Of a DNA stretch of 64,000 bases, positions 1-15,044 are shown piece after piece (position 1 is the stretch's first letter; the number at the start of each line of letters is the position of its first letter). Made by a program: the position numbers and the translations under genes. Source of the stretch: an uncultured Planctomycetota bacterium. Lineage in GTDB: Bacteria > Planctomycetota > PLA2 > JAEUHO01. The notes below the pieces were generated by a model. The model had not been told where the DNA came from, did no database searches, and was given only the letters and a program-made list of their open reading frames with translations. The DNA is taken from NCBI GenBank assembly GCA_963802335.1, contig CAWDIE010000008.1:564601-628600 (forward strand), in the 5' to 3' direction.

Positions 1-3000
1 CGCAGATCAACAAGAAGTTCGGCCACCTCGGTGAGAAGGTCGTGGGGGAGAACCTCCAGGTCATCCGGCGCGGCTTCGACGAGGTCCTCAAGCTCGACCC
101 CGACGAACCTCCAGGACGACGGCCAGGAGGGCATGCAGGTGCCCGTCATGCCGGCGATCCTCGATGGCGCGGGCCAGGATGCGGGCATCGCGAACACAGG
201 CCGGTTCTGGGAACAGGTGTGCCACCTGTACAAGACGGGCGAAGACGGTATCGCCGACCCCTTCGCCGCCATCAGCGCCATGCCCGCGGCCACCAGCTCG
301 ATCCGCGACATGACGGACATGCGCTTCGAGGTGCCGGAGTTCGTGCCCGACAAGTGCACCGGCTGCAGCGCCTGCTGGACGCAGTGCCCCGACAGCGCCA
401 TCCCCGGCGTGGTGAACACGGTCGAGCAGATCCTCGAGACCGCCGTCGATGCCGCCTCCAACGGGCAGACCTTCGACCGCTTCCGTCAGGTCATCAAGCA
501 CCTCGGACGCGAGTCGCGGCGCATCATGCGTTCGTCGCCCTTCACGACGTTCTCCGACGTCCTGAAGACCGCCTACGCGAGTGTGGCGACGAAGCTGGGC
601 CTCGACCCCGAACGCCGCAAGGCCCTGGACAAGGAGTTCCAGGCCATCGCCGGCACGCTCGAGGACTTCCCCCTCGCCAAGACGGCGCCCTTCTTCGACA
701 TGCCCGAGTCGCAGACCAAGGACAGCGGCGGGCTGTTGTCGATCACCGTCAATCCCGAGACGTGCAAGGGCTGCAACGTCTGTGTCAACGTCTGCCCCAC
801 GGGGGCGCTCGTCACCATCAAGCAGACCGACGATGTCGTCGAGGACCTGCGCCGTCGCTGGGCCTTGTGGCACCAGCTGCCGGACACGAACGACGAGTTC
901 GTCAACATCGCGAGCCTCGACGAGGGCATCGGCGTCCTGTCGTCGTTGCTCCTCAAGAAGGACAACTATCTGTCCATGGTGGGCGGCGACGGTGCCTGCA
1001 TGGGGTGCGGCGAGAAGACCGGCATCCACATGATCACCGCCGCCGTGACCGCGTTCGTGCTTCCCAAGGTGCGCGCACTGGTCGAGCGGATCGAGGGGCA
1101 GATCGCGGCGCTGGACGCGAAGGCCCGCGGCCTGCTGGCCGGCGATGCGGACCTGGAGAAGATCGGTGATGCCGGCAACGGTCAAGCCGAAGTGCCGCTC
1201 GACGCGGACAAGAAGCGGGAACTCGAGCGGATCACGAAGATGATTCGCGATCTGAAGGACCTTCACTGGCGATACACCGAGGGGCCGAGCGGCAAGGGCC
1301 GCGCCGCAATGGGCTTCACCAACTCGACGGGCTGCTCGTCGGTGTGGGCCAGCACGTACCCCTACAACCCGTATCCGTTCCCGTGGGTCAACCACCTCTT
1401 CCAGGACGCTCCGTCCATCGCCATCGGCATCTTCGAAGGCCACATGCGCAAGATGGCCGACGGGTTCATCTCGGTGCGCCGGGCGCAGGAGGAGATCGAC
1501 GGCACGTACGATGAGGCGAAGAGCGAGGCGTACTACGCCAAGTTCGACTGGGAGAAGTTCACGGACGACGAGTTCCACCTCTGCCCGCCGGTGATCGCGG
1601 TCGGTGGCGACGGCGCCATGCTCGACATCGGCTTCCAGAACCTGTCGCGCCTGCTGGCGTCCGACAAGCCCGTCCGCGTCGTCGTGCTCGACACCCAGGT
1701 CTACTCCAACACGGGTGGCCAGGCGTCCACCGCGACGTACACGGGGCAGGTGGCCGACATGGCCGCGTTCGGCAAGGCCCACCACGGCAAGGAGGAGATG
1801 CGCAAGGAGCTCTCGCTCCTCGCCATGGCGCACCGCCAAGCCTACGTGCTGCAGTCCTCCCAAGCCCTCCCGAGCCACCTGCTCGGTGGGGTGCTCGAGG
1901 GCCTGCAGGTACGCCGCCCGGCGCTGTTCGTCATCCACTCGCCGTGCCCGCCCGAGCACGGTCTTGCGGACTACAGTTCGATGCGCGCCGCCAAACTGTC
2001 GCTCGAGAGCCGTGCCTTCCCGATCCTCACGTACAACCCCGATCGCGGTAACTCCCTGGCGGAGCACCTGAGCATCGAGGGCAACCCCGCCATCGACGAG
2101 ACCTGGCCGACCTACGAGCTGAAGTACGTCGACGACGACGGGGCCGAGCAGACGATGGAGCTTCCGCTCACCATCGCGGACTGGGCCTGCACCGAGGGGC
2201 GCTTCAAGAAGCACTTCCGCAAGGCCAAGCCCGACGAAGACGTCGTGCCCTACCACGAGTACCTCGCCACCCCGCTCGCCGAGCGCGGCGACGAGATCCC
2301 GTTCATCTACACGCTCGACGCCAAGGGCCGGCTGGTGAAGACGCTCGTGTCCGTGGACATCGTGCGGCTCGGTGACGAGCGCCTCGACTACTGGGGGCGC
2401 CTCAAGCACCTCGCCGGGGTCGAAGCGTCGGCCCCCGTCCACGACGTCGTGGAGGCGGAGCTGGAGGAGGCCTTCGACGAGAAGATCGAGGCCCTCAAGC
2501 GCGAGTACGAGGCCAAGATGGCCGACCTGCGGGCCCACTACCCCGTCCTCGTTGCGCGACGGATGGCGGAAGGGCTGCTGAAGGCCGGCAACGGCACCCA
2601 GACGGTCGCCGAGCTGATCACGCGCGTGCAGTCCATGCCGGATCTGAAGCCCGTGCCCGCGAATGGGGATGCGACGATGACCTTCGGGTCGGCGTCGGCC
2701 ACCGCGCCTGCGAAGGCGTCGGCCCAGCCGGCCGAGGCGACAGCGACGTCGACGGCGCCCACCGCCGTCGCCGAGCAGGAAGAGGAGGATGAGGGGCTCG
2801 CCATGGAGCCCTACATCGAGACCGCTCGCTGCACGACGTGCCACGAGTGCACGAACCTCAACCGGAAGCTCTTCGCCTACAACGAGAAGAAGCAGGCCAT
2901 CATCAAGGATCCGCGGGGCGGCCCGTTCAAGGACCTGGTGCTCGCCGCGGAGAAGTGCCCGGTGAAGATCATCCACCCCGGTACGCCGCTCAACCCCAAG

Positions 3001-3048
3001 GAGAAGAACCTGGAGAAGTGGGTCAAGCGCGCTGAGCCCTTCAACTAG
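1..3048 (+). CDS. nifJ: pyruvate:ferredoxin/flavodoxin oxidoreductase (single-polypeptide PFOR), 3' ~1000 codons. The 5' end lies outside the window. The reading frame changes near nt 95-130. It has an extra C-terminal ferredoxin-like module.
   Basis: Two ferredoxin-type motifs are present (CTGCSACWTQCP, CKGCNVCVNVCP). The TPP-binding region is GGDGAMLDIGFQNLSRL...VLDTQVYSNTGGQ. The PFOR C-terminal region reads WACTEGRFKKHF. nt 3-107 in frame 3 read QINKKFGHLGEKVVGENLQVIRRGFDEV, the end of domain III, while the rest of the gene is in frame 1 (track ORF 31..3048). Confidence 0.9.
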   Translation, partial: RRSTRSSATSVRRSWGRTSRSSGAASTRSSSSTPTNLQDDGQEGMQVPVMPAILDGAGQDAGIANTGRFWEQVCHLYKTGEDGIADPFAAISAMPAATSSIRDMTDMRFEVPEFVPDKCTGCSACWTQCPDSAIPGVVNTVEQILETAVDAASNGQTFDRFRQVIKHLGRESRRIMRSSPFTTFSDVLKTAYASVATKLGLDPERRKALDKEFQAIAGTLEDFPLAKTAPFFDMPESQTKDSGGLLSITVNPETCKGCNVCVNVCPTGALVTIKQTDDVVEDLRRRWALWHQLPDTNDEFVNIASLDEGIGVLSSLLLKKDNYLSMVGGDGACMGCGEKTGIHMITAAVTAFVLPKVRALVERIEGQIAALDAKARGLLAGDADLEKIGDAGNGQAEVPLDADKKRELERITKMIRDLKDLHWRYTEGPSGKGRAAMGFTNSTGCSSVWASTYPYNPYPFPWVNHLFQDAPSIAIGIFEGHMRKMADGFISVRRAQEEIDGTYDEAKSEAYYAKFDWEKFTDDEFHLCPPVIAVGGDGAMLDIGFQNLSRLLASDKPVRVVVLDTQVYSNTGGQASTATYTGQVADMAAFGKAHHGKEEMRKELSLLAMAHRQAYVLQSSQALPSHLLGGVLEGLQVRRPALFVIHSPCPPEHGLADYSSMRAAKLSLESRAFPILTYNPDRGNSLAEHLSIEGNPAIDETWPTYELKYVDDDGAEQTMELPLTIADWACTEGRFKKHFRKAKPDEDVVPYHEYLATPLAERGDEIPFIYTLDAKGRLVKTLVSVDIVRLGDERLDYWGRLKHLAGVEASAPVHDVVEAELEEAFDEKIEALKREYEAKMADLRAHYPVLVARRMAEGLLKAGNGTQTVAELITRVQSMPDLKPVPANGDATMTFGSASATAPAKASAQPAEATATSTAPTAVAEQEEEDEGLAMEPYIETARCTTCHECTNLNRKLFAYNEKKQAIIKDPRGGPFKDLVLAAEKCPVKIIHPGTPLNPKEKNLEKWVKRAEPFN

Positions 3049-3078: not shown

Positions 3079-4407
3079 ATGCCCACGAATCTCCAGTTTC
3101 GTCACGGGGTCCACCCCCCGGAGTCCAAGGAGCTCACGGCGAGCCTTCCGGTCCGCCGGATGGCCTTTCCGTCCGAGATCATCCTTCCCCTGCGTCAGCA
3201 TGCGGGTCGGCCGGCCAAGGCGATCGTCAAGGCGGGCGACCGGGTCGAACGCGGCGACATGGTCGCCGAGGCCGACGGCTGGGTGTCGGTGCCGATCCAC
3301 GCCTCCGCCGCCGGTCGCGTGGCGTCGGTGGGGCTGTGGCCGCACCCCGACGGAAGCACCGATCTGGCCGTGCGAATCCTGGTGGATCCCAACTCGGCCC
3401 AGGCCCCCCGCCCGCGGGTGATCCCTCGGTGGGAGAGCCTGGAGCCGAAAGAGATCGTGCAGGCCATCCAGCACGGCGGCCTGGTCGGACTCGGCGGTGC
3501 GGCATTTCCCACCCACGTCAAGCTCTCGCCCCCGGAGGACAAGCGGCTCGACGCCATCCTGATCAACGGCTGCGAGTGCGAGCCGTATCTGACGACCGAT
3601 CACCGGACGATGGTGGACTTCCCGGAGCGGGTCCACGAGGGCATTCGCATCATGATGCGCGCGCTCGGCGTGGACCGCGCCCTCGTCGGCATCGAGAACA
3701 ACAAGCCGGACGCGATCGCGCGCATGCGTGAGACCGCGCCGACGGACATCGACGTCGAGATCCTACCCCTCACCGTCAAGTACCCGCAGGGTGCGGAGAA
3801 GATGCTCATCAAGGCCCTCCTGGATCGGGAGGTCCCGTCCGGCGGGTTGCCGATGGACGTCGGCGTCATCGTCCAAAACGTGGCCTCGGTCGCGACGATC
3901 GCGGAGATCTTCGAGACGGGGCTGCCGCTCATCGAGCGCATCGTCACCGTCACCGGCCCCGGCGTGAAGAAGCCCGCCAATCTGCTCGTGCCGGTCGGCA
4001 CGCGTATCGGGGATCTCCTGGACGCCTGTGGCGGACTGACGGACGACGCGATCGAGATCGTCAGCGGCGGCCCGATGATGGGCGCCGCGATTGCGAGCCT
4101 CGACGCGCCGGTCATGAAAGGCACCACGGGCATCATCGCCTTGCGCGCAGAGGACGTGAAGGAACAGGAGCAGTACCCGTGCATCCGCTGCGGGCATTGC
4201 TTGGAAGCCTGCCCCGTGTTCCTCAACCCGCAGGTCCTCGGCAAGCTCGCCATGAACGGGCGCGACGAGGAAATGGCCGGGGAGCATCACCTGTGGGACT
4301 GCATGCTCTGCGGCTGCTGCTCCTACGTGTGTCCGTCGAACATCCCCCTGTCACAACTCTTCTCCGCGTCGCGCGCGGCGCTTCGAAGGAAGAAGGCCTC
4401 GGTATGA
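3079..4407 (+). CDS. rnfC: Rnf electron-transport complex subunit C
   Basis: The N-terminus is MPTNLQFRHGVHPP. The nucleotide/FMN-binding stretch is GLVGLGGAAFPTHVKL. Two 4Fe-4S motifs are present (CIRCGHCLEACP, CMLCGCCSYVCP). The start is 30 nt after the PFOR stop, with GAGG upstream. Confidence 0.95.
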   Translation: MPTNLQFRHGVHPPESKELTASLPVRRMAFPSEIILPLRQHAGRPAKAIVKAGDRVERGDMVAEADGWVSVPIHASAAGRVASVGLWPHPDGSTDLAVRILVDPNSAQAPRPRVIPRWESLEPKEIVQAIQHGGLVGLGGAAFPTHVKLSPPEDKRLDAILINGCECEPYLTTDHRTMVDFPERVHEGIRIMMRALGVDRALVGIENNKPDAIARMRETAPTDIDVEILPLTVKYPQGAEKMLIKALLDREVPSGGLPMDVGVIVQNVASVATIAEIFETGLPLIERIVTVTGPGVKKPANLLVPVGTRIGDLLDACGGLTDDAIEIVSGGPMMGAAIASLDAPVMKGTTGIIALRAEDVKEQEQYPCIRCGHCLEACPVFLNPQVLGKLAMNGRDEEMAGEHHLWDCMLCGCCSYVCPSNIPLSQLFSASRAALRRKKASV

Positions 4408-5450
4408 AGCCCCCGCGTTGGCTGATCACCGCGTCCCCGCACGTCGGCTCCCCGGAGAGTACGCCGCGCATCATGTGGTCGGTGGTTGCGAGCCTCGTTC
4501 CCATCTGCGCCGCGGGCGTGTACTTCTTCGGTCCCAGCGCCCTGCTCGTCCTCATGGCGTCGACCGCCGGTTGCGTCGTCACGGAGCGCGTGTTCGGCAA
4601 GCGTGGCACCCTGCTCGACGGTTCCGCCGTGATCACCGGGCTCCTGCTGGGGCTGACGTTGCCGCCGGGGATCCCCCTGTGGATGGCCTTCGTGGGGGGC
4701 GCGTTCGGCCTGGGCTTCGGCAAGCTGATCTTCGGCGGCCTCGGGCAGAACCCCTTCAACCCCGCGCTCTTGGGCCGCGCCTTCCTGCAGGCCGCGTTTC
4801 CCGTCGCACTGAACACGTGGCCGCAGAACGGCTCCGGCATGACCCTGTTCTCCCACTTCCGGCTCGACCGGTTGAGCGAGTGGGCGGCCCTTCGCGGCGA
4901 CAACTTCGCGTTTCCCTTCACCTCGGCCCAGGTCCCGGACGCTTCGACCGCGGCCACCCCGCTCGGTCTCTGGAAGTTCCAGGACACCTCGACCGAGCTC
5001 TCGAATCTCCTGCTCGGCACGACGGGGGGGTGCATCGGCGAGACGGCCGGCATCCTGATCCTGCTCTGCGGCGCGTACCTGGCCGTGCGAAACCACCTGA
5101 ACTGGCGCATCCCGGTCAGCATCTTCGCCTCCGTGATCCTCTTCGCCGGCGTGCTCTACCTCGCCAACGCGGAGCGCTACGCGAGCCCGCTATTCATGCT
5201 CTTCAGCGGCGGCCTGATGCTCGGCGCCGTCTACATGGCGACGGACATGGTCACGTCGCCCGTGACGAATCGGGGCGCCTGGGTATTCGGCATCGGCATC
5301 GGATTCCTCGTCATCGTAATTCGGACGTGGGGTGGGCTGGCCGAGGGTGTCCAGTACGCGATCCTCCTGATGAACGCCCTCGTCCCCTTCATCAACCGGA
5401 TGACCCAGCCGAAGGTCTTCGGCACGCGCCGCGTGCGGGTGACGTCATGA
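4404..5450 (+). CDS. rnfD: Rnf complex subunit D (polytopic membrane, FMN-linked)
   Basis: The start at MKPPRWLITASPHV forms an ATGA overlap with the rnfC stop. The protein has many TM helices. The flavinylation motif is DASTAATPLG. This is the inner part of track ORF 4179..5450. Confidence 0.93.
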   Translation: MKPPRWLITASPHVGSPESTPRIMWSVVASLVPICAAGVYFFGPSALLVLMASTAGCVVTERVFGKRGTLLDGSAVITGLLLGLTLPPGIPLWMAFVGGAFGLGFGKLIFGGLGQNPFNPALLGRAFLQAAFPVALNTWPQNGSGMTLFSHFRLDRLSEWAALRGDNFAFPFTSAQVPDASTAATPLGLWKFQDTSTELSNLLLGTTGGCIGETAGILILLCGAYLAVRNHLNWRIPVSIFASVILFAGVLYLANAERYASPLFMLFSGGLMLGAVYMATDMVTSPVTNRGAWVFGIGIGFLVIVIRTWGGLAEGVQYAILLMNALVPFINRMTQPKVFGTRRVRVTS

Positions 5451-6184
5451 GCACCGCTACCGACACGACGACGCCGGACGCGCCGGCGCCCCAGATCCCC
5501 CGCGCGGACGTGCCGTCGTGGCGCTTGATCGCGACGCTGGCCGTCGCGGGCGCGCTGGCCGCGGTGTTGTTGGCCGTCGTCAGCGACCTGACGAGGGATC
5601 GCATCGCCGCCAACAAGGCCGCGGTCCTGAAGGAGGCCATCGGGGTCGTCTTGCAGGATGCCGACCGGATCGTAAGCCTCCAGGAGCAAGAGGACGGCCT
5701 GCGTCTCGACGAGGAGGTCGTCTACCTCAACGACCGCATCTTCTTCGGCTACGACGAGAGCGGCGCCCCGCTCGGTTTCGCGATGGTGGGGGGGGCGTAC
5801 GGGTACGGCTCCGATCCGATCCGTCTGATCTTCAGCTACGACGCATCCACGCACGAAGTGCTCGGCCTGAAGGTCCTCGAGCACAAGGAGACCCCGGGCA
5901 TCGGAACGAAGATCGAGGACGATGCCGCGTTCGCCGGTCAGTGGTCCAAGCCGGTGGGGGACGACACGCGACGTCGTGCGCCGCGCCTCGTGGCGGCCGA
6001 CGCGTCCCTCGTCCCCGTGCGTAGCGATGCGGCGCCGGCCTCGGATCCGGCCGCCGAGCGGCACGAGGTCGACACCATCAGCGGCGCGACCATCTCGTCG
6101 AAGGCCGTCATCAAGATCGTGAGCGACCGGGTCCGCCAGCTGGGTGACAAGCTGGCGGCCTGGAACCCGGAGGAGGGGCGATGA
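5447..6184 (+). CDS. rnfG: Rnf complex subunit G (FMN-binding)
   Basis: An ATGA overlap with the rnfD stop marks the start. There is one N-terminal TM helix (WRLIATLAVAGALAAVLLAVV). The covalent-FMN motif is DTISGATISSKAV. The protein is longer than usual because of an insertion before the FMN site. Confidence 0.9.
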   Translation: MSTATDTTTPDAPAPQIPRADVPSWRLIATLAVAGALAAVLLAVVSDLTRDRIAANKAAVLKEAIGVVLQDADRIVSLQEQEDGLRLDEEVVYLNDRIFFGYDESGAPLGFAMVGGAYGYGSDPIRLIFSYDASTHEVLGLKVLEHKETPGIGTKIEDDAAFAGQWSKPVGDDTRRRAPRLVAADASLVPVRSDAAPASDPAAERHEVDTISGATISSKAVIKIVSDRVRQLGDKLAAWNPEEGR

Positions 6185-6834
6185 GAGAGACCACGCCCAG
6201 CGCCGACTTCGTTCGCGGCATCTGGCGCGAGAACCCGGTGCTCGTGCAGATGCTGGGCCTCTGCCCCGCGTTGGCGGTGACCAACTCGGCGGTGAACGCC
6301 CTCGCGATGGGGGTCGCGACGTTCTTCGTCCTGATCGGATCGAGCTTCATGGTCTCGAGCCTCAAGCGCTTCATCCCCAGCGAGGTGCGCATCTCGACCT
6401 ACATCCTGATCATCGCGACGTTCGTCACGATCGCCGACCTGGGTCTGGAGGCGTTGGCGCCCGGCGTGCACAAGGCCCTGGGCGCGTTCATCTCCCTCAT
6501 CGTGGTGAACTGCATGATCTTGGGTCGACAAGAAGCGTTCGCCTCCAAGCGGCCCGTCGGTCGCGCCGTGCTCGACGCCATGGGCACGGGCGTCGGGTTC
6601 ATCATCGCGCTGTTCCTGATGGGCGCGTTCCGCGAGATCCTCGGCAACGGCACCTTGTTCGGTGCCCAGCTCTTCGGACCCCACTTCGAGCCCTGGGTCG
6701 TCATGATCCTGCCGCCCGGTGGCTTCCTCATGCTCGGCTTCCTGCTCCTCGGCCTCGGCTGGTGGGAGCAGCGGAAGGCGCGTCGCCAGACGCCGGTGGA
6801 TGCGTCGTCCGAGCCGGTACGGAGGGTGGCATGA
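6181..6834 (+). CDS. rnfE: Rnf complex subunit E
   Basis: The N-terminal region reads NPVLVQMLGLCPALAVTNSAVNALAMG. The protein is polytopic. The start overlaps the rnfG stop (ATGA). Confidence 0.93.
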   Translation: MRETTPSADFVRGIWRENPVLVQMLGLCPALAVTNSAVNALAMGVATFFVLIGSSFMVSSLKRFIPSEVRISTYILIIATFVTIADLGLEALAPGVHKALGAFISLIVVNCMILGRQEAFASKRPVGRAVLDAMGTGVGFIIALFLMGAFREILGNGTLFGAQLFGPHFEPWVVMILPPGGFLMLGFLLLGLGWWEQRKARRQTPVDASSEPVRRVA

Positions 6835-7415
6835 ACGACAACGTCCTCTGGATCCTGCTCTCGGCCATGATCGTCAACAACTTCACGTTGATGATGTTCC
6901 TCGGTCTGTGCCCGTTCATGGGGGTCTCGGCGAAGGTGTCCACGGCGCTCCGCATGGGGCTCGCGAACATCTTCGTCCTGGTGATCACCTCGATCTGCGC
7001 GTGGTTCCTGCATAACTTCGTACTCCCGCACGCGCCGTACCTGCGGCTCATCTCCTACATCGTGGTCATTGCCTCGATGGTGCAGATCACCGAGATGGCC
7101 ATCAAGAAACTGAGCCCGGCGCTGTTTAGGCAGCTCGGCATCTTCCTGCCCTTGATCACGACGAACTGCGCGATCCTCGGCATGGCGCTCTGGCAGACCG
7201 TGAAGTACGACTACAACTTCATCCAGGGCATCTTCTACGCGGTGGGCGCGGGCGCCGGCCTGACGCTGGCCCTCGTGCTCATGGCTTCGATTCGCGAGAA
7301 CACCGAGCTCAGCGACGTCCCGTCGATCGCCAAGGGCACCGCCCTCACGCTCATCATCGCCGCGAGCTTGAGCCTGGCCTTCATGGGCTTCTCCGGTCTC
7401 GGGAGCGCGTCGTGA
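6831..7415 (+). CDS. rnfA: Rnf complex subunit A
   Basis: The N-terminus is MNDNVLWILLSAMIVNNFTLMMFLGLCPFMGVS. The start overlaps the rnfE stop (ATGA). This is the inner part of track ORF 6144..7415. Confidence 0.93.
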   Translation: MNDNVLWILLSAMIVNNFTLMMFLGLCPFMGVSAKVSTALRMGLANIFVLVITSICAWFLHNFVLPHAPYLRLISYIVVIASMVQITEMAIKKLSPALFRQLGIFLPLITTNCAILGMALWQTVKYDYNFIQGIFYAVGAGAGLTLALVLMASIRENTELSDVPSIAKGTALTLIIAASLSLAFMGFSGLGSAS

Positions 7416-7618
7416 GTCCGATCCTGGCCATGCTCCTGCTGGCCGTGCTCTTCACGGCCTTCGCGCTGCTGACGCGTCGCGTCGAGCCGCGTTCCTGCTC
7501 TACCCACGCCTGCCCCGACCCGACCGATTCCGAACGTGCCGGTTCCCAACATGCCGGCGACGCCTGCGCGGGCTGCGAACTCGCAGCCGTGAAGACGGAG
7601 ACGAACGACCATGCGTGA
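7412..7618 (+). CDS. small single-TM Cys-rich protein sitting between rnfA and apbE (possible NqrM-like maturation factor)
   Basis: The GTG start overlaps the rnfA stop (GTGA), and the 3' end overlaps the apbE ATG by 8 nt. The N-terminal TM helix is ILAMLLLAVLFTAFALLT, followed by RR. Four Cys residues follow (SCSTHAC...ACAGC). Confidence 0.55.
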   Translation: MSPILAMLLLAVLFTAFALLTRRVEPRSCSTHACPDPTDSERAGSQHAGDACAGCELAAVKTETNDHA

Positions 7619-8621
7619 TCCCCAAGACACCGTGCGCCCGGCGTGGCGAGCCGACCGTCGGCAGCTGCTGACCCTGGGTCTGGGAACGTTCGTGGTGGCC
7701 TCGCTGCCGCTGGCGCTCCGCCGTCGCCGCGCCTTCGAGGTCGTGCGTCGGCAGGTGCCGGTCATGGGCACCCTGGCGGATCTGACGGTCGTGGCCGAGG
7801 GCCGCCGTCAGGGCCACGCCGCTCTCGACGGGGCCGTCGCCGCCTTGCGGGCGGTGGACCGGACCATGACCGCCTACGCCGCGACCTCGGATGTCGGGCG
7901 GGCGAACGCCACGGCCGCCCGGGAGGCCGTCGTGGTCGACGAGAGCACGGCGACCGTCGTCCGCGAGGCGCTCGGCTGGGCCGAGGCCACGGACGGTCGC
8001 TTTGATCCCTGCCTGGGACGGGCCACGGCCCTGTGGGACGTGAAGCTGAGAAGCACCCCGCCCGCGGCCGCCGCCGTGGACGAGCTCGCCTCCCGAGGCC
8101 TCTGGCGGCGTCTGGACGTCGGCACCCTGAACGGGCGGACGTGCCTGCGCTACGGGGACCGGGATGTTCGTGTCGACCTGGGCGGGATCGCCAAGGGCTT
8201 CGCCGTGGACCAGGCCGCCCTGGCCGTACGCCGGGTCGGGGTCACGAGCGGCCTGCTCAACGTCGGCGGGGATCTGGTCGCCCTGGGGCGCTCGCCCGAC
8301 GGCGACCCGTGGCAGGTCGGGATCCGCTCACCCGAGGACGCGCGGGCGCTCGTGACGACACTCGCGGTCGAGGACGAGGCCATCGCCACTTCCGGGGACT
8401 ACGAGCAGTCGTTCGTGCACGGCGGGAGGCGGTACCACCACCTGCTCGACGGGTCGACGGCGGCCCCCCGCGCCACCCGTGCGCGCAGTCTGACCGTGGC
8501 CGCGCCGACGTGCATGGCCGCGGACGCCGCGGCGACCGCGGCTTTCGGTCTCGAGGCTCGGCCGGCTGGCGACCTCGTGCGGCAGATCGAGCGGGGCGCG
8601 CGCGTCCTCTGCGTCGCCTAG
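7611..8621 (+). CDS. apbE: FAD:protein FMN transferase (ApbE family)
   Basis: The N-terminus is Tat-like (RRQLLTLGLGTFVVASLPLAL). ApbE signatures are MGTLADLTV, FDPCLG, LGGIAKGFAVDQA and ATSGDYEQSF..HHLLD. Confidence 0.9.
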   Translation: MRDPQDTVRPAWRADRRQLLTLGLGTFVVASLPLALRRRRAFEVVRRQVPVMGTLADLTVVAEGRRQGHAALDGAVAALRAVDRTMTAYAATSDVGRANATAAREAVVVDESTATVVREALGWAEATDGRFDPCLGRATALWDVKLRSTPPAAAAVDELASRGLWRRLDVGTLNGRTCLRYGDRDVRVDLGGIAKGFAVDQAALAVRRVGVTSGLLNVGGDLVALGRSPDGDPWQVGIRSPEDARALVTTLAVEDEAIATSGDYEQSFVHGGRRYHHLLDGSTAAPRATRARSLTVAAPTCMAADAAATAAFGLEARPAGDLVRQIERGARVLCVA

Positions 8622-8677: not shown

Positions 8678-9109
8678 ATGAGCCTGACCACGATCGGAAC
8701 CCGGAGCGTCATCGCGGTGGACGCCGCGACGGCCGTCACCGAGGTCGCTCGCAAGATGAAGACCATGAGCCTGGGCTCCGTGGTGGTGCTCCGTGACGAC
8801 CGTCCCATCGGCATCGTGACGGACCGCGATCTGACCGTGCGCGTGCTGGCGACCGACAACCGTCCGGACGAGCTCCATGCGGCGGACGTCATGAGCGCAC
8901 CCCTCACGTGCGTCCACGAGCACGACGAACCGCTCAAGGCCGCGATGCTCATGCGGGAGGCCCAGGTCCGGCGCCTGCCGATCCTCGGTGGCGACGGGCA
9001 ACTCGTCGGCATCATCAGCCTTGACGATCTGATGCATCACTTAAGCCGAACCCAGCACGAGATGTGCGAGGCCATCGCCTCCTTCCCGGTCTCGCACCAC
9101 GGCGGCTGA
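8678..9109 (+). CDS. CBS domain pair protein
   Basis: Two CBS-like repeats are present (VIAVDAATAVTEVARKM...GIVTDRDL and LTCVHEHDEPLKAAMLM...VGIISLDDL). GGAG lies upstream. Confidence 0.85.
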   Translation: MSLTTIGTRSVIAVDAATAVTEVARKMKTMSLGSVVVLRDDRPIGIVTDRDLTVRVLATDNRPDELHAADVMSAPLTCVHEHDEPLKAAMLMREAQVRRLPILGGDGQLVGIISLDDLMHHLSRTQHEMCEAIASFPVSHHGG

Positions 9110-9262
9110 GCCGGCGCCGGACGCGCCTCTCTTCTCGGGTATCTGCTTCGCTCGCGTAGGATGACGACCTGATGGAGCCCTCGCCGCCGTTGGGCTGGAG
9201 GGCCGACTGTCGTTGATGCGTGATGCCGTCGCCGCAGGGACTCGAGCGCCGGGAGGCCATCG

Positions 9263-10679: not shown

Positions 10680-11825
10680 ATGAAGAAGATCCTCGGACTC
10701 GTGGCCTTCCTGGCCCTTCTGGGGCTGGTCCTCGCCTACGTGATGGGCGTCTTCCACGGGGATCTCGTGGAGCCCGGTCAGGCCGAGGCCGCGCCCGGCC
10801 TTCCCGCGCCGACGAAGACGGTCGTGGCCGAGCGGGCCGAGGCCCCGGTCGTCGAGGAAGCGGTCGGCACGGTGGCCTCCGAACGCAAGGTCGCCGTGTC
10901 GGCGCAGGTCCAGGCACGGGTCAAGGAGGTGCATGCCGATGCGGGCGAGAGCGTCGAGGCCGGCAAGCCCTTGATCGTGCTCGACGATCGCGAGCTGGTC
11001 GCGCGGCGTTCCCAAGCCGCCGACGGGCTGCGTCAAGCCGAAGCCGCGAAGGAACGTGCCATCCAGGCGCGGGCACAAGCCGAGGCCGTGCTCGGCCAGG
11101 CTCAGAACCACTTCAAGCGGATCAAGGGCCTCTTCGATGCGAGTGCGGCGACGCCCGACCAACTCGAGCGGGCCGAGTCGGCGCGGCTGCAGGCCACAGC
11201 CGCGGTCGCGGAAGCGGATGCGGCCATCGCCGCCGCCGCGGCCCAGATCGAGCAGGCCCGCGAGGGCGTAACGGGCGCGGATGTCGCGCTGAGCCATGCC
11301 CGCATCGCCGTGCCGATCACGGGGGTCGTCTCCATGAAGGACATCGAGCCCGGGGACTCGGCGTGGCCGGGCAAGACCCTGCTCGAGATCATCGACCCCA
11401 CCGACCTCCGGCTCGAGGCCCAGGTCCGTGAGGGGCTCATCTCGACGATCGTCCGCGGCATGGAGTACGAGGTGGAGATTCCAGCCGCCGGGCGCACGGT
11501 CATGGGCACCGTGGGGGAGATCTGTCCGACGGCCAATCCGCTGAGCCGGACGTTCGGCGTCCGGATCACGTTCGATCCCGTACCTGGCGTGCACCCGGGC
11601 ATGTTCGGGCGCTTGCGCCTTCCGGTAGGGGCGCGCGAGGTCGTCCGCGTGCCGGCGGCGGCCATCGTCCGGGTCGGACAACTGGAGACCGTGCTCGTCA
11701 AGACGGGCGACGTCTGGGCGCGGCGCCTCGTCACGACGGGCCTGAAGTTGGAGGACGGGGCGTACGTCGAGGTCCTCTCCGGGCTCGAAGGTGGCGAAAC
11801 CGTCGGCCTCCCGGAGCGTGAGTGA
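10680..11825 (+). CDS. efflux RND periplasmic adaptor (membrane fusion protein, HlyD family)
   Basis: It has an N-terminal TM helix, a coiled-coil hairpin (AEAAKERAIQARAQAEA...AAAQIEQAREG) and beta-barrel motifs (IAVPITGVV, VPAAAIV). The start is 2 nt after the tolC stop. Confidence 0.85.
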   Translation: MKKILGLVAFLALLGLVLAYVMGVFHGDLVEPGQAEAAPGLPAPTKTVVAERAEAPVVEEAVGTVASERKVAVSAQVQARVKEVHADAGESVEAGKPLIVLDDRELVARRSQAADGLRQAEAAKERAIQARAQAEAVLGQAQNHFKRIKGLFDASAATPDQLERAESARLQATAAVAEADAAIAAAAAQIEQAREGVTGADVALSHARIAVPITGVVSMKDIEPGDSAWPGKTLLEIIDPTDLRLEAQVREGLISTIVRGMEYEVEIPAAGRTVMGTVGEICPTANPLSRTFGVRITFDPVPGVHPGMFGRLRLPVGAREVVRVPAAAIVRVGQLETVLVKTGDVWARRLVTTGLKLEDGAYVEVLSGLEGGETVGLPERE

Positions 11826-14800
11826 TGGCCGCCGAGGAGAAAGAAGGCCTGATCCAGAAGCTGGTCCGCGCTTCGGTCGTCGGCCCGCTCTCGCCCCTGC
11901 TGATCGTGATCTCCGTGGCGGCGGGCATCGTGGCCGTCCTGTTCACGCCGCGCGAGGAGGAGCCGCAGATCGTCGTGCCTATGGCCGACGTGTACGTGCA
12001 GTTCCCGGGCGCGAGCGCCGAGGAGGTCGAGAAGCTCGTGGCCACGCCGCTCGAGAAGCTCCTGTGGCAGATCGACGGGGTCGAACACGTCTACTCGATG
12101 TCGCAGCGCGACCACGCCATCGTGACCGTGCGCTACTTCGTCGGCGAGGACCGGGAGCGCGCTTTGGTGCGCCTCCAGAGCAAGATCGACGCGAACCGGG
12201 ATGCGGTCCCGCCCGGGGTGACCGGCTGGGTCGTGAAACCGGTCGAGATCGACGACGTGCCCATCGTCACCCTGACCTTCTGGTCAGAGGAGGCGGACGA
12301 CGCGGCGCTCCGTCGGGTGGCGGAGGAGATGGCTGCCCGCCTCGCTCCGGTGCCCGACATCTCGCGTTCCGAGATCGTCGGCGGGCGTCCGAGGGAAGTT
12401 CGCGTCGAACTCGACCCGGAAGCCGTCGCGGCGCACGGCCTCTCCCCGCTGGAGATCAGCCAGGCCTTGCGGGGGGCAGACGCATCGCTCCCCGCCGGTT
12501 CATTCGAGCGTGACGATGTCCGTGTGCCCGTGGTGGCGGGGCCCTTCGTCGGTGGTCACGAGGACGTGGCCGAGCTCGTCGTCGGCGCCTACGGGGGCCG
12601 TCCCGTCTACCTGCGTGACGTCGCCCAGGTGATCGACGGCCCGGCGGAGGCCACCAGCTACGTACGTATGGCCTTCGGACGGGCCTCGGCCGATGAGGAC
12701 GTCGAGGTCGGGCAGGGCTTCCCCGCCGTCACCCTGGCCCTGTCCAAGAAGAAGGGCACCAACGCCGTCCTCGTGGCGCACGACGTGGTCGCCGAGCGCA
12801 CAGGAACTCGCGCCGGGCGTGCTGCCCGACGGCGTGAACATGACGGTCACGCGCAACTACGGGCATACCGCCGACGAGAAGGTCAACGAGCTGCTCGGTC
12901 ACCTGATCCTGGCGATCATCACCGTGATCGGCCTCATCACGTACGCGCTGGGCTGGCGAGAAGGCCTGATCGTGGCCGCCGCGGTGCCGATCACCTTCGC
13001 GCTGACGCTCCTCATCAACCAGCTCTTCGGTTACACGATCAACCGGGTCACCCTGTTCGCGCTCGTCCTGGTGCTCGGCATGGTCTGCGACGACCCCATC
13101 GTGGACGTCGAAAACATCCACCGCCATTTCCTGATGCGGAAGCGCAAGCCGCTCGACGCCGTGCTCTTCGCGGTCAACGAGGTGCGGCCCCCGATCATCT
13201 TCGCCACCGTGGCCGTGATCCTCTCCTTCCTGCCCATGCTGTTCATCACGGGGATGATGGGCCCCTACATGCGACCGATGGCGATCAACGTACCGATCGC
13301 GATGGCCATGAGCCTTCTCGTCGCGTTCACCATCACGCCCTGGATGGCCTACTACTTGCTCCGTCCGACCTACGGCAAGGGGGAGGGCCACGCCGATCAA
13401 CACGGCGTCGGGCTCTTCGGCCGGCTCTACCGCGGCACGGTAGGGATCTTCCTCGACTCACGCATCGCCCGGTGGGGGCTGTTCGTCCTGCTCCTGGGCC
13501 TCATGGGCTTTGCGGGCTGGATCGTGATGGCGGGCAAGGTCCCGCTCAAGATGCTCCCCTACGACAACAAGAGCGAGTTCCAGGTGGTGCTCGATCTGCC
13601 CGAAGGCGCCACGTTGGAGCGGACCGACGCCGCGGTCGCCGCGTTCGAGCGCTACTTCACGACGGTCCCCGAGGTAACGAACTACCAGGCGTACGTCGGC
13701 ACCTCGAGTCCCATCGATTTCAACGGCCTGGTACGTCACTACGGCTTGCGGCAGATGCCCTACCACGCGGACCTGAGGATCAACCTGCTGAACAAGTCCC
13801 AGCGTACCCAGCAGAGCCACGACCTGACGCTCCGGCTGCGCCACGACCTGGAGGCCCTGGCGCGGGCGCACGACGCGAAGCTCAAGATCGTGGAAATGCC
13901 GCCCGGCCCGCCCGTCCTGGGGACGCTCGTAGCGGAGGTTCGTGGACCGGTGCAGGCCAGCTACGAGGAGTTGCTCGCGTCCGGTGACGAGCTCGAGCGA
14001 CGCCTGAACGAGATCGACGGCGTCGTCGACACCGACGTGATGGGGGAGGCGGACCGCACGCGCCTGGACTTCGTCCTCGACAAGGAGAAAGCGGCGCTGC
14101 ATGGCGTCGCGACGGCCGACGTCGTGCAGACCTTGCGCCTCGCGCTGACCGGGGACTTCCCGGCGACCGTGCACGAACCCGGCGAGCGCCAACCACTGAA
14201 GCTGCGCCTCGTGCTGAGTCGGATGCGGCGGAGCGGCGCGGAGGAGCTGTCTCGCTTGAAGGTGAAGGGGCGCACCGGCGTTCTCGTGCCGCTCGCCGAG
14301 ATCGGCACGTTCGAGGCGGTGCCCGACGACAAGACGATCATGCACAAGGACCTCGTGCGCACGGTCTTCGTCCTCGGCGACATCGCCGGCGTCCCGCCCG
14401 CGGATGTGGTGCTCGAGATCCAAGACGGACTCGAGAAGGACCCGCTACCGCACCAGATCGTGGCGGACTGGACCGGGGAGGGGGAGTGGAAGATCACGAT
14501 CGACGTCTTCCGTGACCTGGGGATCGCGTTCTTCGGGGCGTTGATCGCGATCTACGCCTTGCTCGTCCTCGAGACCAAGTCGTTCTTCATGCCCTTGGTG
14601 GTGATGGCCTCCATTCCGCTCGGCATGATCGGCATCATGCCCGGGTTCTGGCTCCTCAATTCGGTCATGACGAAGGACATCGGGGGATTCGCGAGCCCCG
14701 TCTGGTTCACCGCCACGGGGATGATCGGCATGATCGCCCTGGCCGGCATCGTGATCCGTAACGCCATCATCCTGATCGACTTCATCCGAAGCCGCGCGAA

Positions 14801-15044
14801 GGAGGGAATGCCCATGCGCGAGGCCGTGCTGGAGAGTGGTGCCGAGCGCCTGAGGCCGATCATCCTGACCGCGTTCACGACGATGATCGGCGCCTGGCCG
14901 ATCACGCTGGATCCGATCTTCAGCGGCCTCGCCTGGAGCCTGATCTTCGGCATCCTCGCGTCGACCTTCTTCACCTTGCTGGTGATCCCGGTCGTCTACT
15001 ACGCCTTCTTCCGTTCGCCCGCGGAGGCGTCGTCGGCATCGTGA
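11822..15044 (+). pseudogene. RND efflux permease (AcrB/CzcA superfamily), reading frame interrupted near nt 12797-12801
   Basis: Track ORF 11822..13987 is RND-like only up to ...GTNAVLVAHDVVAER. Track ORF 12693..15044 becomes RND-like from AQELAPGVLPDGVNMTVTRNYG onward. Joined, the two give ~1074 aa, the normal RND size with 12 TM helices. One surplus base lies at the junction. Confidence 0.85.

Follow-up and report, generated by a model that had tools for sequence, protein, structure and literature searches.

A PFOR-like gene with a ferredoxin tail in a conserved rnf operon of an uncultured Planctomycetota bacterium, with rnfB probably just outside the analysed window

Rnf is a ferredoxin:NAD+ oxidoreductase that acts as an ion pump, and its genes occur in a 64,000-nucleotide (nt) stretch of DNA from an uncultured Planctomycetota bacterium (assembly GCA_963802335.1, contig CAWDIE010000008.1, positions 564,601 to 628,600; hereafter the window), directly downstream of a gene that resembles pyruvate:ferredoxin oxidoreductase (PFOR). 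With high confidence, we read this region as the 3′ two-thirds of a conserved operon of the order rnfB-PFOR::Fd-rnfC-D-G-E-A-X-apbE(-CBS), where Fd is a ferredoxin domain fused to the PFOR-like protein and X encodes a small Cys-rich membrane protein. Such an operon would encode a complete Rnf of six subunits. The initial annotation had described an operon with no rnfB, in which the PFOR tail might replace RnfB or dock in its place. The comparison with relatives strongly suggests that the apparent lack of rnfB is an artefact of the window edge, and from these relatives we strongly infer a canonical rnfB elsewhere in the source genome, a finding that the initial annotation had itself named as decisive against its proposal.

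The window was searched for rnfB by two methods. CxxCxxCxxxCP motifs in the six reading frames were found only in PFOR and RnfC, and a tblastn search of the 64 kb with a validated RnfB matched only those iron-sulfur (Fe-S) motifs, with a best E value of 0.002. The two scans agree, and the earlier observation that rnfB is missing from the whole 64 kb is correct. The further claim that the operon itself lacks rnfB does not follow from it. The PFOR open reading frame (ORF) has no start in the window, and because only about the last 970 of the 1650-1690 codons of full-length relatives are present, the window opens approximately 2.1 kb inside the PFOR gene. Since the window begins at this point, the 5′ part of the operon is out of view, and in relatives the part that is missing here contains rnfB.

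Relatives were collected in two scans. The first used RnfC as the query with one genome per species and gave 80 loci at 50-71% identity; the second used the window PFOR fragment and added 80 metagenome loci from JGI. No relative exceeded 71% RnfC identity in the genome scan or 68% PFOR identity in the metagenome scan. RnfB candidates were first located with an E. coli RsxB sequence, and the counts given here use an RnfB validated with NCBIfam models, from the locus labelled L001. The 80 genome loci belong in the majority to Gemmatimonadota, and the others to Rokubacteria, Planctomycetota, Myxococcota/"Deltaproteobacteria", Gammaproteobacteria (Woeseiaceae, Lysobacterales, and Wenzhouxiangellaceae), Acidobacteriota, and further groups. 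In 65 of these 80 loci, rnfC is directly preceded by the PFOR tail, which is also the arrangement of the window. Where such genome loci extend more than 6.2 kb upstream, an RnfB-like gene immediately precedes PFOR in every one (43/43), and it starts 5.8-6.16 kb upstream of rnfC. When the genome and metagenome loci were combined, rnfB was found on the same strand directly upstream of the tailed PFOR in 93 of the 93 loci that have at least 3.5 kb upstream of the position that corresponds to window nt 133. The start of rnfB falls 2914-3169 nt (median 2990) upstream of this position. By this spacing, the rnfB of the source almost certainly precedes PFOR just beyond the left window edge, roughly 2.0-2.9 kb before nt 1.

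The identity of the upstream gene as rnfB was assessed in L001, the closest of the 80 species-representative genomes. Its rnfB (4163-5014) encodes 283 amino acids (aa) with an N-terminal transmembrane (TM) helix, the motif NCGGCGFPGCRAFAEA, and several ferredoxin-type motifs, and it has PF04060-type Fe-S and polyferredoxin domains. The score of the protein exceeds the cut-off of TIGR01944, and the PRK07118 models for RnfB match it as well. In addition, its relatives, among the matches listed (120 of 7583), carry PF04060 and were named RnfB by their source.

A protein search with the window PFOR fragment revealed the closest relative of the operon among those retrieved. The protein P0127 (1683 aa) is 74% identical to the fragment, and its locus, L162, has the order korA-like (635 aa), korB-like (319 aa), a hypothetical gene (341 aa), rnfB (283 aa, with PF04060), PFOR (1683 aa), rnfC, rnfD, rnfG, rnfE, and rnfA. 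In this locus, rnfB overlaps the start of PFOR by 4 nt. After rnfA follow a gap without called genes that holds an X-like ORF, then apbE, the CBS gene, a membrane-fusion protein, and an RND pump, so that the synteny on the right is that of the window. The identities to the window proteins are 75% for RnfC, 76% for RnfD, 53% for RnfG, 76% for RnfE, 86% for RnfA, 54% for ApbE, and 70% for the CBS protein.

An Rnf without RnfB in the source genome, to which the PFOR tail would deliver electrons straight at RnfA/E or at RnfC, is very improbable in our judgement. The absence of rnfB from 64 kb and a tethered ferredoxin domain directly upstream of rnfC are what this explanation has in its favour, but the window begins inside PFOR, and rnfB stands before PFOR in all 93 loci and in L162. 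The tail has neither a TM helix nor the PF04060 domain, which sets the proximal cluster of RnfB at RnfA/E. Moreover, because the tail and RnfB coexist in relatives, the tail would be no substitute for RnfB. What is retained from the initial annotation is the genetic wiring of a tailed PFOR-like enzyme to Rnf, an arrangement that is conserved across several phyla, in over 90 loci. The operon is a conserved variant of the known Rnf system, with a PFOR-ferredoxin fusion between rnfB and rnfC in many phyla.

Conservation extends beyond the 5′ end of rnfB. In 72 of 82 loci, rnfB is directly preceded by two genes resembling korA and korB and by a gene whose product, of about 335-341 aa, has no Pfam match (5268-9146 in L162; 720-4158 in L001). 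Since the korAB-like genes and the hypothetical gene are kept at this place, the conserved module is larger than the rnf genes. One locus, L080, has a plain rnfBCDGEA operon with no PFOR; this order looks like the ancestral one, into which PFOR was inserted. In another (L033, 360-10001, Gemmatimonadales), a block of about 9.6 kb with long ORFs on both strands parts the PFOR tail from rnfC, and therefore the linkage of PFOR and rnfC can be broken.

The genes of the window, which has a G+C content of 65-74%, were assigned with an ORF listing and with Pfam and NCBIfam models over the 64 kb. The order on the + strand is the PFOR-like gene, rnfC, rnfD, rnfG, rnfE, rnfA, X, apbE, and a CBS-pair gene, as follows:

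1..3048, + strand: PFOR-like 2-oxoacid:ferredoxin oxidoreductase, 3′ approximately 60% of the gene (Pfam Fer4 families, TPP_enzyme_C, Fer4_13)
3079..4407, + strand: rnfC, 442 aa, putative NAD(H)- and flavin mononucleotide (FMN)-binding subunit with two [4Fe-4S] motifs (TIGR01945; Pfam RnfC_N, Complex1_51K, SLBB, Fer4)
4404..5450, + strand: rnfD, 348 aa (TIGR01946; PF03116)
5447..6184, + strand: rnfG, 245 aa (PF04205 FMN_bind, E 1e-14; TIGR01947 as best match, below cut-off)
6181..6834, + strand: rnfE, 217 aa (TIGR01948; PF02508)
6831..7415, + strand: rnfA, 194 aa (TIGR01943; PF02508)
7412..7618, + strand: X, 68 aa, one N-terminal TM helix followed by four Cys (CxxxxCP...CxxC), with close homologues P0002-P0004
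7611..8621, + strand: apbE, 336 aa, putative FAD:protein FMN transferase for flavinylation of RnfD and RnfG (PF02424, E 4e-68; NF007774 partial)
8678..9109, + strand: CBS-pair protein, 143 aa (PF00571; in the same place in L162, 70% identity)

Translational coupling had been described for every junction. From rnfC to apbE this is borne out: the overlap is ATGA at 4404, 5447, 6181, and 6831 and GTGA at 7412, and it is 8 nt long at 7611. Each was found where it had been reported. PFOR and rnfC do not overlap; a gap of 30 nt lies between them. Between apbE and the CBS-pair gene lie 56 nt, and the latter has the same position in L162. A consensus scan detected a hairpin resembling a terminator at 9113-9127, followed by a T-rich run, on the 3′ side of this gene. 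The CBS-pair gene may thus be the last gene of the transcription unit, and the hairpin might mark the true end of the unit. Genes of the TolC, HlyD, and AcrB types follow on the right in the window. In two Gemmatimonadaceae loci (L017, 3798-4688; L021, 13177-14067), apbE lies between rnfG and rnfE.

The five core subunits in the window were compared with models of both Rnf and Na+-NQR. RnfC reaches 515 bits with TIGR01945 (cut-off 246), RnfD 314 bits with TIGR01946 (cut-off 207), RnfE 234 bits with TIGR01948 (cut-off 213), and RnfA 229.5 bits with TIGR01943 (cut-off 229.3). RnfG has TIGR01947 as its best match at 83 bits, under the cut-off of 102 bits, and contains the FMN_bind domain. RnfC carries the Fe-S motifs CIRCGHCLEACP and CMLCGCCSYVCP. 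An identity as Na+-NQR was considered and rejected: the nqrA-E models gave 28-171 bits, far under their cut-offs (144-850), subunit C, unlike an NqrA, carries Fe-S and Complex1_51K domains, and no NqrF-like ORF is present in the operon. Subunits C, D, G, E, and A are therefore assigned by their sequences to the Rnf family and not to Nqr.

The cofactor sites of these subunits are also preserved. The motifs for covalent FMN are intact in RnfD (DASTAATPLG, nt 4938-4967) and in RnfG (DTISGATIS, nt 6071-6097), at the places given in the initial annotation, and the presence of apbE in the operon is consistent with them. The ApbE match to PF02424 covers profile positions 1-260 of 266. Cys28 and Cys111 of RnfE and Cys27 and Cys113 of RnfA are available for an intramembrane [2Fe-2S] cluster.

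Several known systems can be compared with this operon. Like the canonical Rnf operons (rnfCDGEAB of Acetobacterium/Clostridium, rnfBCDGEA, and rnfABCDGE/rsx of E. coli), it has C, D, G, E, and A, all scoring as Rnf, together with both flavinylation motifs and two Cys each in RnfA and RnfE, and the RnfB of its relatives is a polyferredoxin with a TM helix. It differs from them by a PFOR-like gene of about 5 kb between rnfB and rnfC, with rnfB placed as in the relatives, by apbE and the small Cys-rich X inside the operon, and by the korAB-like genes and conserved hypothetical gene before rnfB in relatives. The Na+-NQR operon nqrABCDEF-apbE-nqrM of Vibrio has a homologous membrane core and likewise places apbE and a small one-helix, four-Cys protein by the structural genes. 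In contrast to that system, RnfC has FMN/NADH and Fe-S domains that NqrA lacks, no NqrF is present, and X stands before apbE, whereas nqrM stands after it. Partial "NQR/RNF-like" systems, in which RnfD is fused to an NAD-binding domain of the NqrF type (PMC8238504), are different from the window operon.

The PFOR-like protein is, judged by its domains, a divergent 2-oxoacid:ferredoxin oxidoreductase. Full-length relatives contain POR_N, PFOR_II, POR (gamma), two Fer4 motifs split by about 130 aa, TPP_enzyme_C, and a C-terminal Fer4_13 domain, and thus show the order I-II-III-V-VI of single-chain PFORs. The window part comprises the end of domain III, the two-[4Fe-4S] domain, the thiamine pyrophosphate (TPP)-binding domain, a coiled coil, a linker rich in Ala, Pro, and Glu, and a ferredoxin I-type domain. 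The two [4Fe-4S] motifs lie at nt 355-390 and 763-798, with the insertion of about 130 aa between them. In the translation, the tail comes after a segment that resembles a coiled coil and some 60 residues rich in Ala, Pro, and Glu; its ferredoxin I-type domain (nt approximately 2818-2976) has a CxxCxxC motif at nt 2830-2850. A match to Fer4_13 at the C-terminus (E 5e-8) supports the earlier description of a PFOR with its own ferredoxin-like tail. The best solved matches of the core are the homodimeric PFORs 6CIN, 7PLM, and 1B0P. The sole solved relative of the tail is ferredoxin I of Desulfovibrio africanus, a 64-aa protein with a single [4Fe-4S] cluster (1DAX, E 4e-4), which the tail resembles. 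This ferredoxin is the electron acceptor of the PFOR of that organism.

Compared to the homodimeric PFORs of D. africanus and Moorella thermoacetica (1B0P, 6CIN), which share the order POR_N, PFOR_II, POR gamma, two-[4Fe-4S], and TPP, the window-type protein is about 450 residues longer; it has the insertion between the Fe-S motifs and adds the C-terminal coiled coil, linker, and fused ferredoxin. Covalent joining of PFOR to its electron acceptor also occurs in the pyruvate:NADP+ oxidoreductase of Euglena and Cryptosporidium, in which PFOR is fused to a flavoprotein reductase module and reduces NADP+ directly. In contrast, the acceptor here is a small ferredoxin, which presumably passes electrons to a separate membrane complex.

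The carrier of the ferredoxin domain is not the same in all loci. In distant loci (L064-L078, with RnfC approximately 50-54% identical), a ferredoxin I-type domain ends another protein of about 830-1400 aa just before rnfB, and a protein resembling 2-oxoacid:ferredoxin oxidoreductase without the tail lies between rnfB and rnfC. These carriers (L064, 1899-4376; L070, 2763-5285; L072, 2315-4813; L074, 2-4252; L077, 1808-4465; L078, 1560-4205) have 825-1416 aa, and that of L064 has no other Pfam domain. The ferredoxin module thus appears to stay beside rnfB while the protein that carries it varies.

The tail is most likely an electron shuttle between PFOR and RnfB, to judge from its sequence and position. 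We infer a contact of the tail with RnfB, a 2-oxoacid substrate, a direction of flow, and a role for X that would fit together as follows. The ferredoxin I-type domain with its single [4Fe-4S] cluster, held by the coiled coil and the flexible linker of about 60 aa, would move electrons between the PFOR clusters and the polyferredoxin RnfB. Electrons would pass from the 2-oxoacid to the PFOR clusters, the tethered ferredoxin, RnfB, the [2Fe-2S] centre of RnfA/E, the FMN on RnfG, the FMN on RnfD, RnfC, and finally NAD+. This flow would be coupled to the export of Na+ or H+. ApbE would attach the FMNs to RnfG and RnfD, and X, as a small Cys-rich membrane protein, may aid the assembly of a metal centre.

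Four points weigh against this picture. The rnfB of the source is deduced from relatives whose identity is 75-86% at most. The contact between the tail and RnfB is a prediction from the sequences. The PFOR-like protein reaches 390 bits with TIGR02176 against an equivalog cut-off of 911, and because the score is so far under the cut-off, pyruvate can be named only as a putative substrate. Finally, the deposited assembly contains an apparent frameshift in PFOR, and if it is real, the enzyme is possibly inactive in this strain.

The frameshift amounts to 1 nt and lies at nt approximately 100-110 (90-140). The first 100 nt or so encode the end of PFOR domain III in frame 3 (QINKKFGHLGEKVV...RRGFDEV), and the remainder of the gene is in frame 1; at the break, frame 3 runs to ...RRGFDEVLKLDPDE and frame 1 resumes with LQDDGQEGMQVPVMPAILDG. 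In L162, the PFOR frame is continuous at the corresponding position. The PFOR ORF deposited for the source itself, P0125, is 100% identical to the window, and because it has only 969 aa, the frameshift is present in the public assembly. A second long gene of the window is also split. In the gene for an AcrB-type RND pump (11822-15041), the frame that matches positions 14-274 of the ACR_tran profile differs from the one that matches 337-1020, and the switch falls near 12830-12900. Two frame breaks in conserved long genes within 64 kb may point to indel errors of the assembly rather than to decay into pseudogenes.

A pseudogene is therefore an unlikely explanation for the PFOR of this strain, in our estimate, although the change from frame 3 to frame 1 and the deposited ORF of 969 aa would both be expected if the frameshift were real. 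Rnf would then use free ferredoxin, and the tail would be irrelevant here. The split RND pump, which points to assembly indels, argues against such decay, as do the 969 intact codons of the PFOR ORF after the shift, at 74% identity to L162, and the rnf genes, which are all intact and tightly coupled.

The direction of electron flow is not fixed by the sequence. The oxidative, energy-conserving direction is favoured, by a modest preference. A lesser but substantial possibility is the reverse, in which NADH and the ion gradient would, via Rnf, reduce the tethered ferredoxin and drive reductive carboxylation, in which PFOR and the KorAB-like enzyme would act as synthases of pyruvate and 2-oxoglutarate. 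Many of the host lineages (Gemmatimonadota, Rokubacteria, and Woeseiaceae) are not classical fermenters, and the korA/korB-like genes just upstream of rnfB in most loci would suit this direction. Rnf and PFOR have also been described as reversible (PMC12174285). However, no other marker gene of the reductive tricarboxylic acid cycle turned up in the window, where no search was aimed at such genes. The nearest solved relative of the tail, moreover, is a ferredoxin that accepts electrons from PFOR in D. africanus, and this speaks for the oxidative direction.

Small ORFs of the X design are a regular feature of the position after rnfA. They were found in 72 of 98 loci by a strict automated rule and in approximately 90 of 102 by inspection, for example at 14094-14246 in L001 and approximately 19355-19509 in L162, and are often left uncalled by gene finders. 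The design across loci is one TM helix with 3-5 Cys; the family alignment (A1) shows two invariant Cys and one more that is nearly so. In two Gemmatimonadaceae loci (L017 and L021), a different Cys-rich ORF of about 112-118 aa (MKTQ.AYCSACDKDV...) follows rnfA instead of X. PF12669, the FeoB-associated Cys-rich membrane protein family, matched 17 of 36 X-family members weakly (best E 2.3e-4) and did not match X of the window.

X is like NqrM in architecture, with one TM helix and conserved Cys, and in operon context only. The architecture of NqrM was reportedly described by Kostyrko and co-workers in 2016. Homology to NqrM was considered as an explanation and set aside, as none of the 36 X-family members matches PF04400 at E values up to 10. 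By published account, NqrM is a small protein with one helix and four Cys (PMC12174285). By analogy, we hypothesize that X may be an Rnf assembly factor for the [2Fe-2S] centre of RnfA/E, or else a small subunit.

A limited literature search found no PFOR gene inside an rnf operon, no such PFOR-ferredoxin fusion, no Rnf lacking RnfB, and no NqrM-like factor for Rnf, which is weak evidence of novelty. The operon design itself is found in Gemmatimonadota, Rokubacteria, Planctomycetota, Myxococcota, several Gammaproteobacteria, and Acidobacteriota. Tentatively, and with more doubt than confidence, it might be seen as a hard-wired "2-oxoacid:NAD+ oxidoreductase ion pump" that keeps RnfB. In such a pump, the tethered ferredoxin would replace a diffusible one, a PFOR-Rnf supercomplex could arise from one operon, and X would be an RnfA/E factor analogous to NqrM.

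An Rnf without rnfB would have meant a new entry of electrons into the complex, and this does not hold because the missing subunit is almost certainly encoded just beyond the window edge. There remains a conserved operon design in which a covalently tethered ferredoxin links a PFOR-like enzyme to Rnf, and most of the lineages that have it are not classical anaerobes. Should the two enzymes function as a single unit, they would provide a compact route from the oxidation of 2-oxoacids to NADH and an ion gradient, or the reverse for reductive carboxylation, and the pathway would be shut to other users of ferredoxin. In addition, the membrane iron-sulfur centre of Rnf could have an assembly factor that has gone unrecognised, with X as the candidate; to our knowledge, a factor of this kind is so far known only for Na+-NQR.

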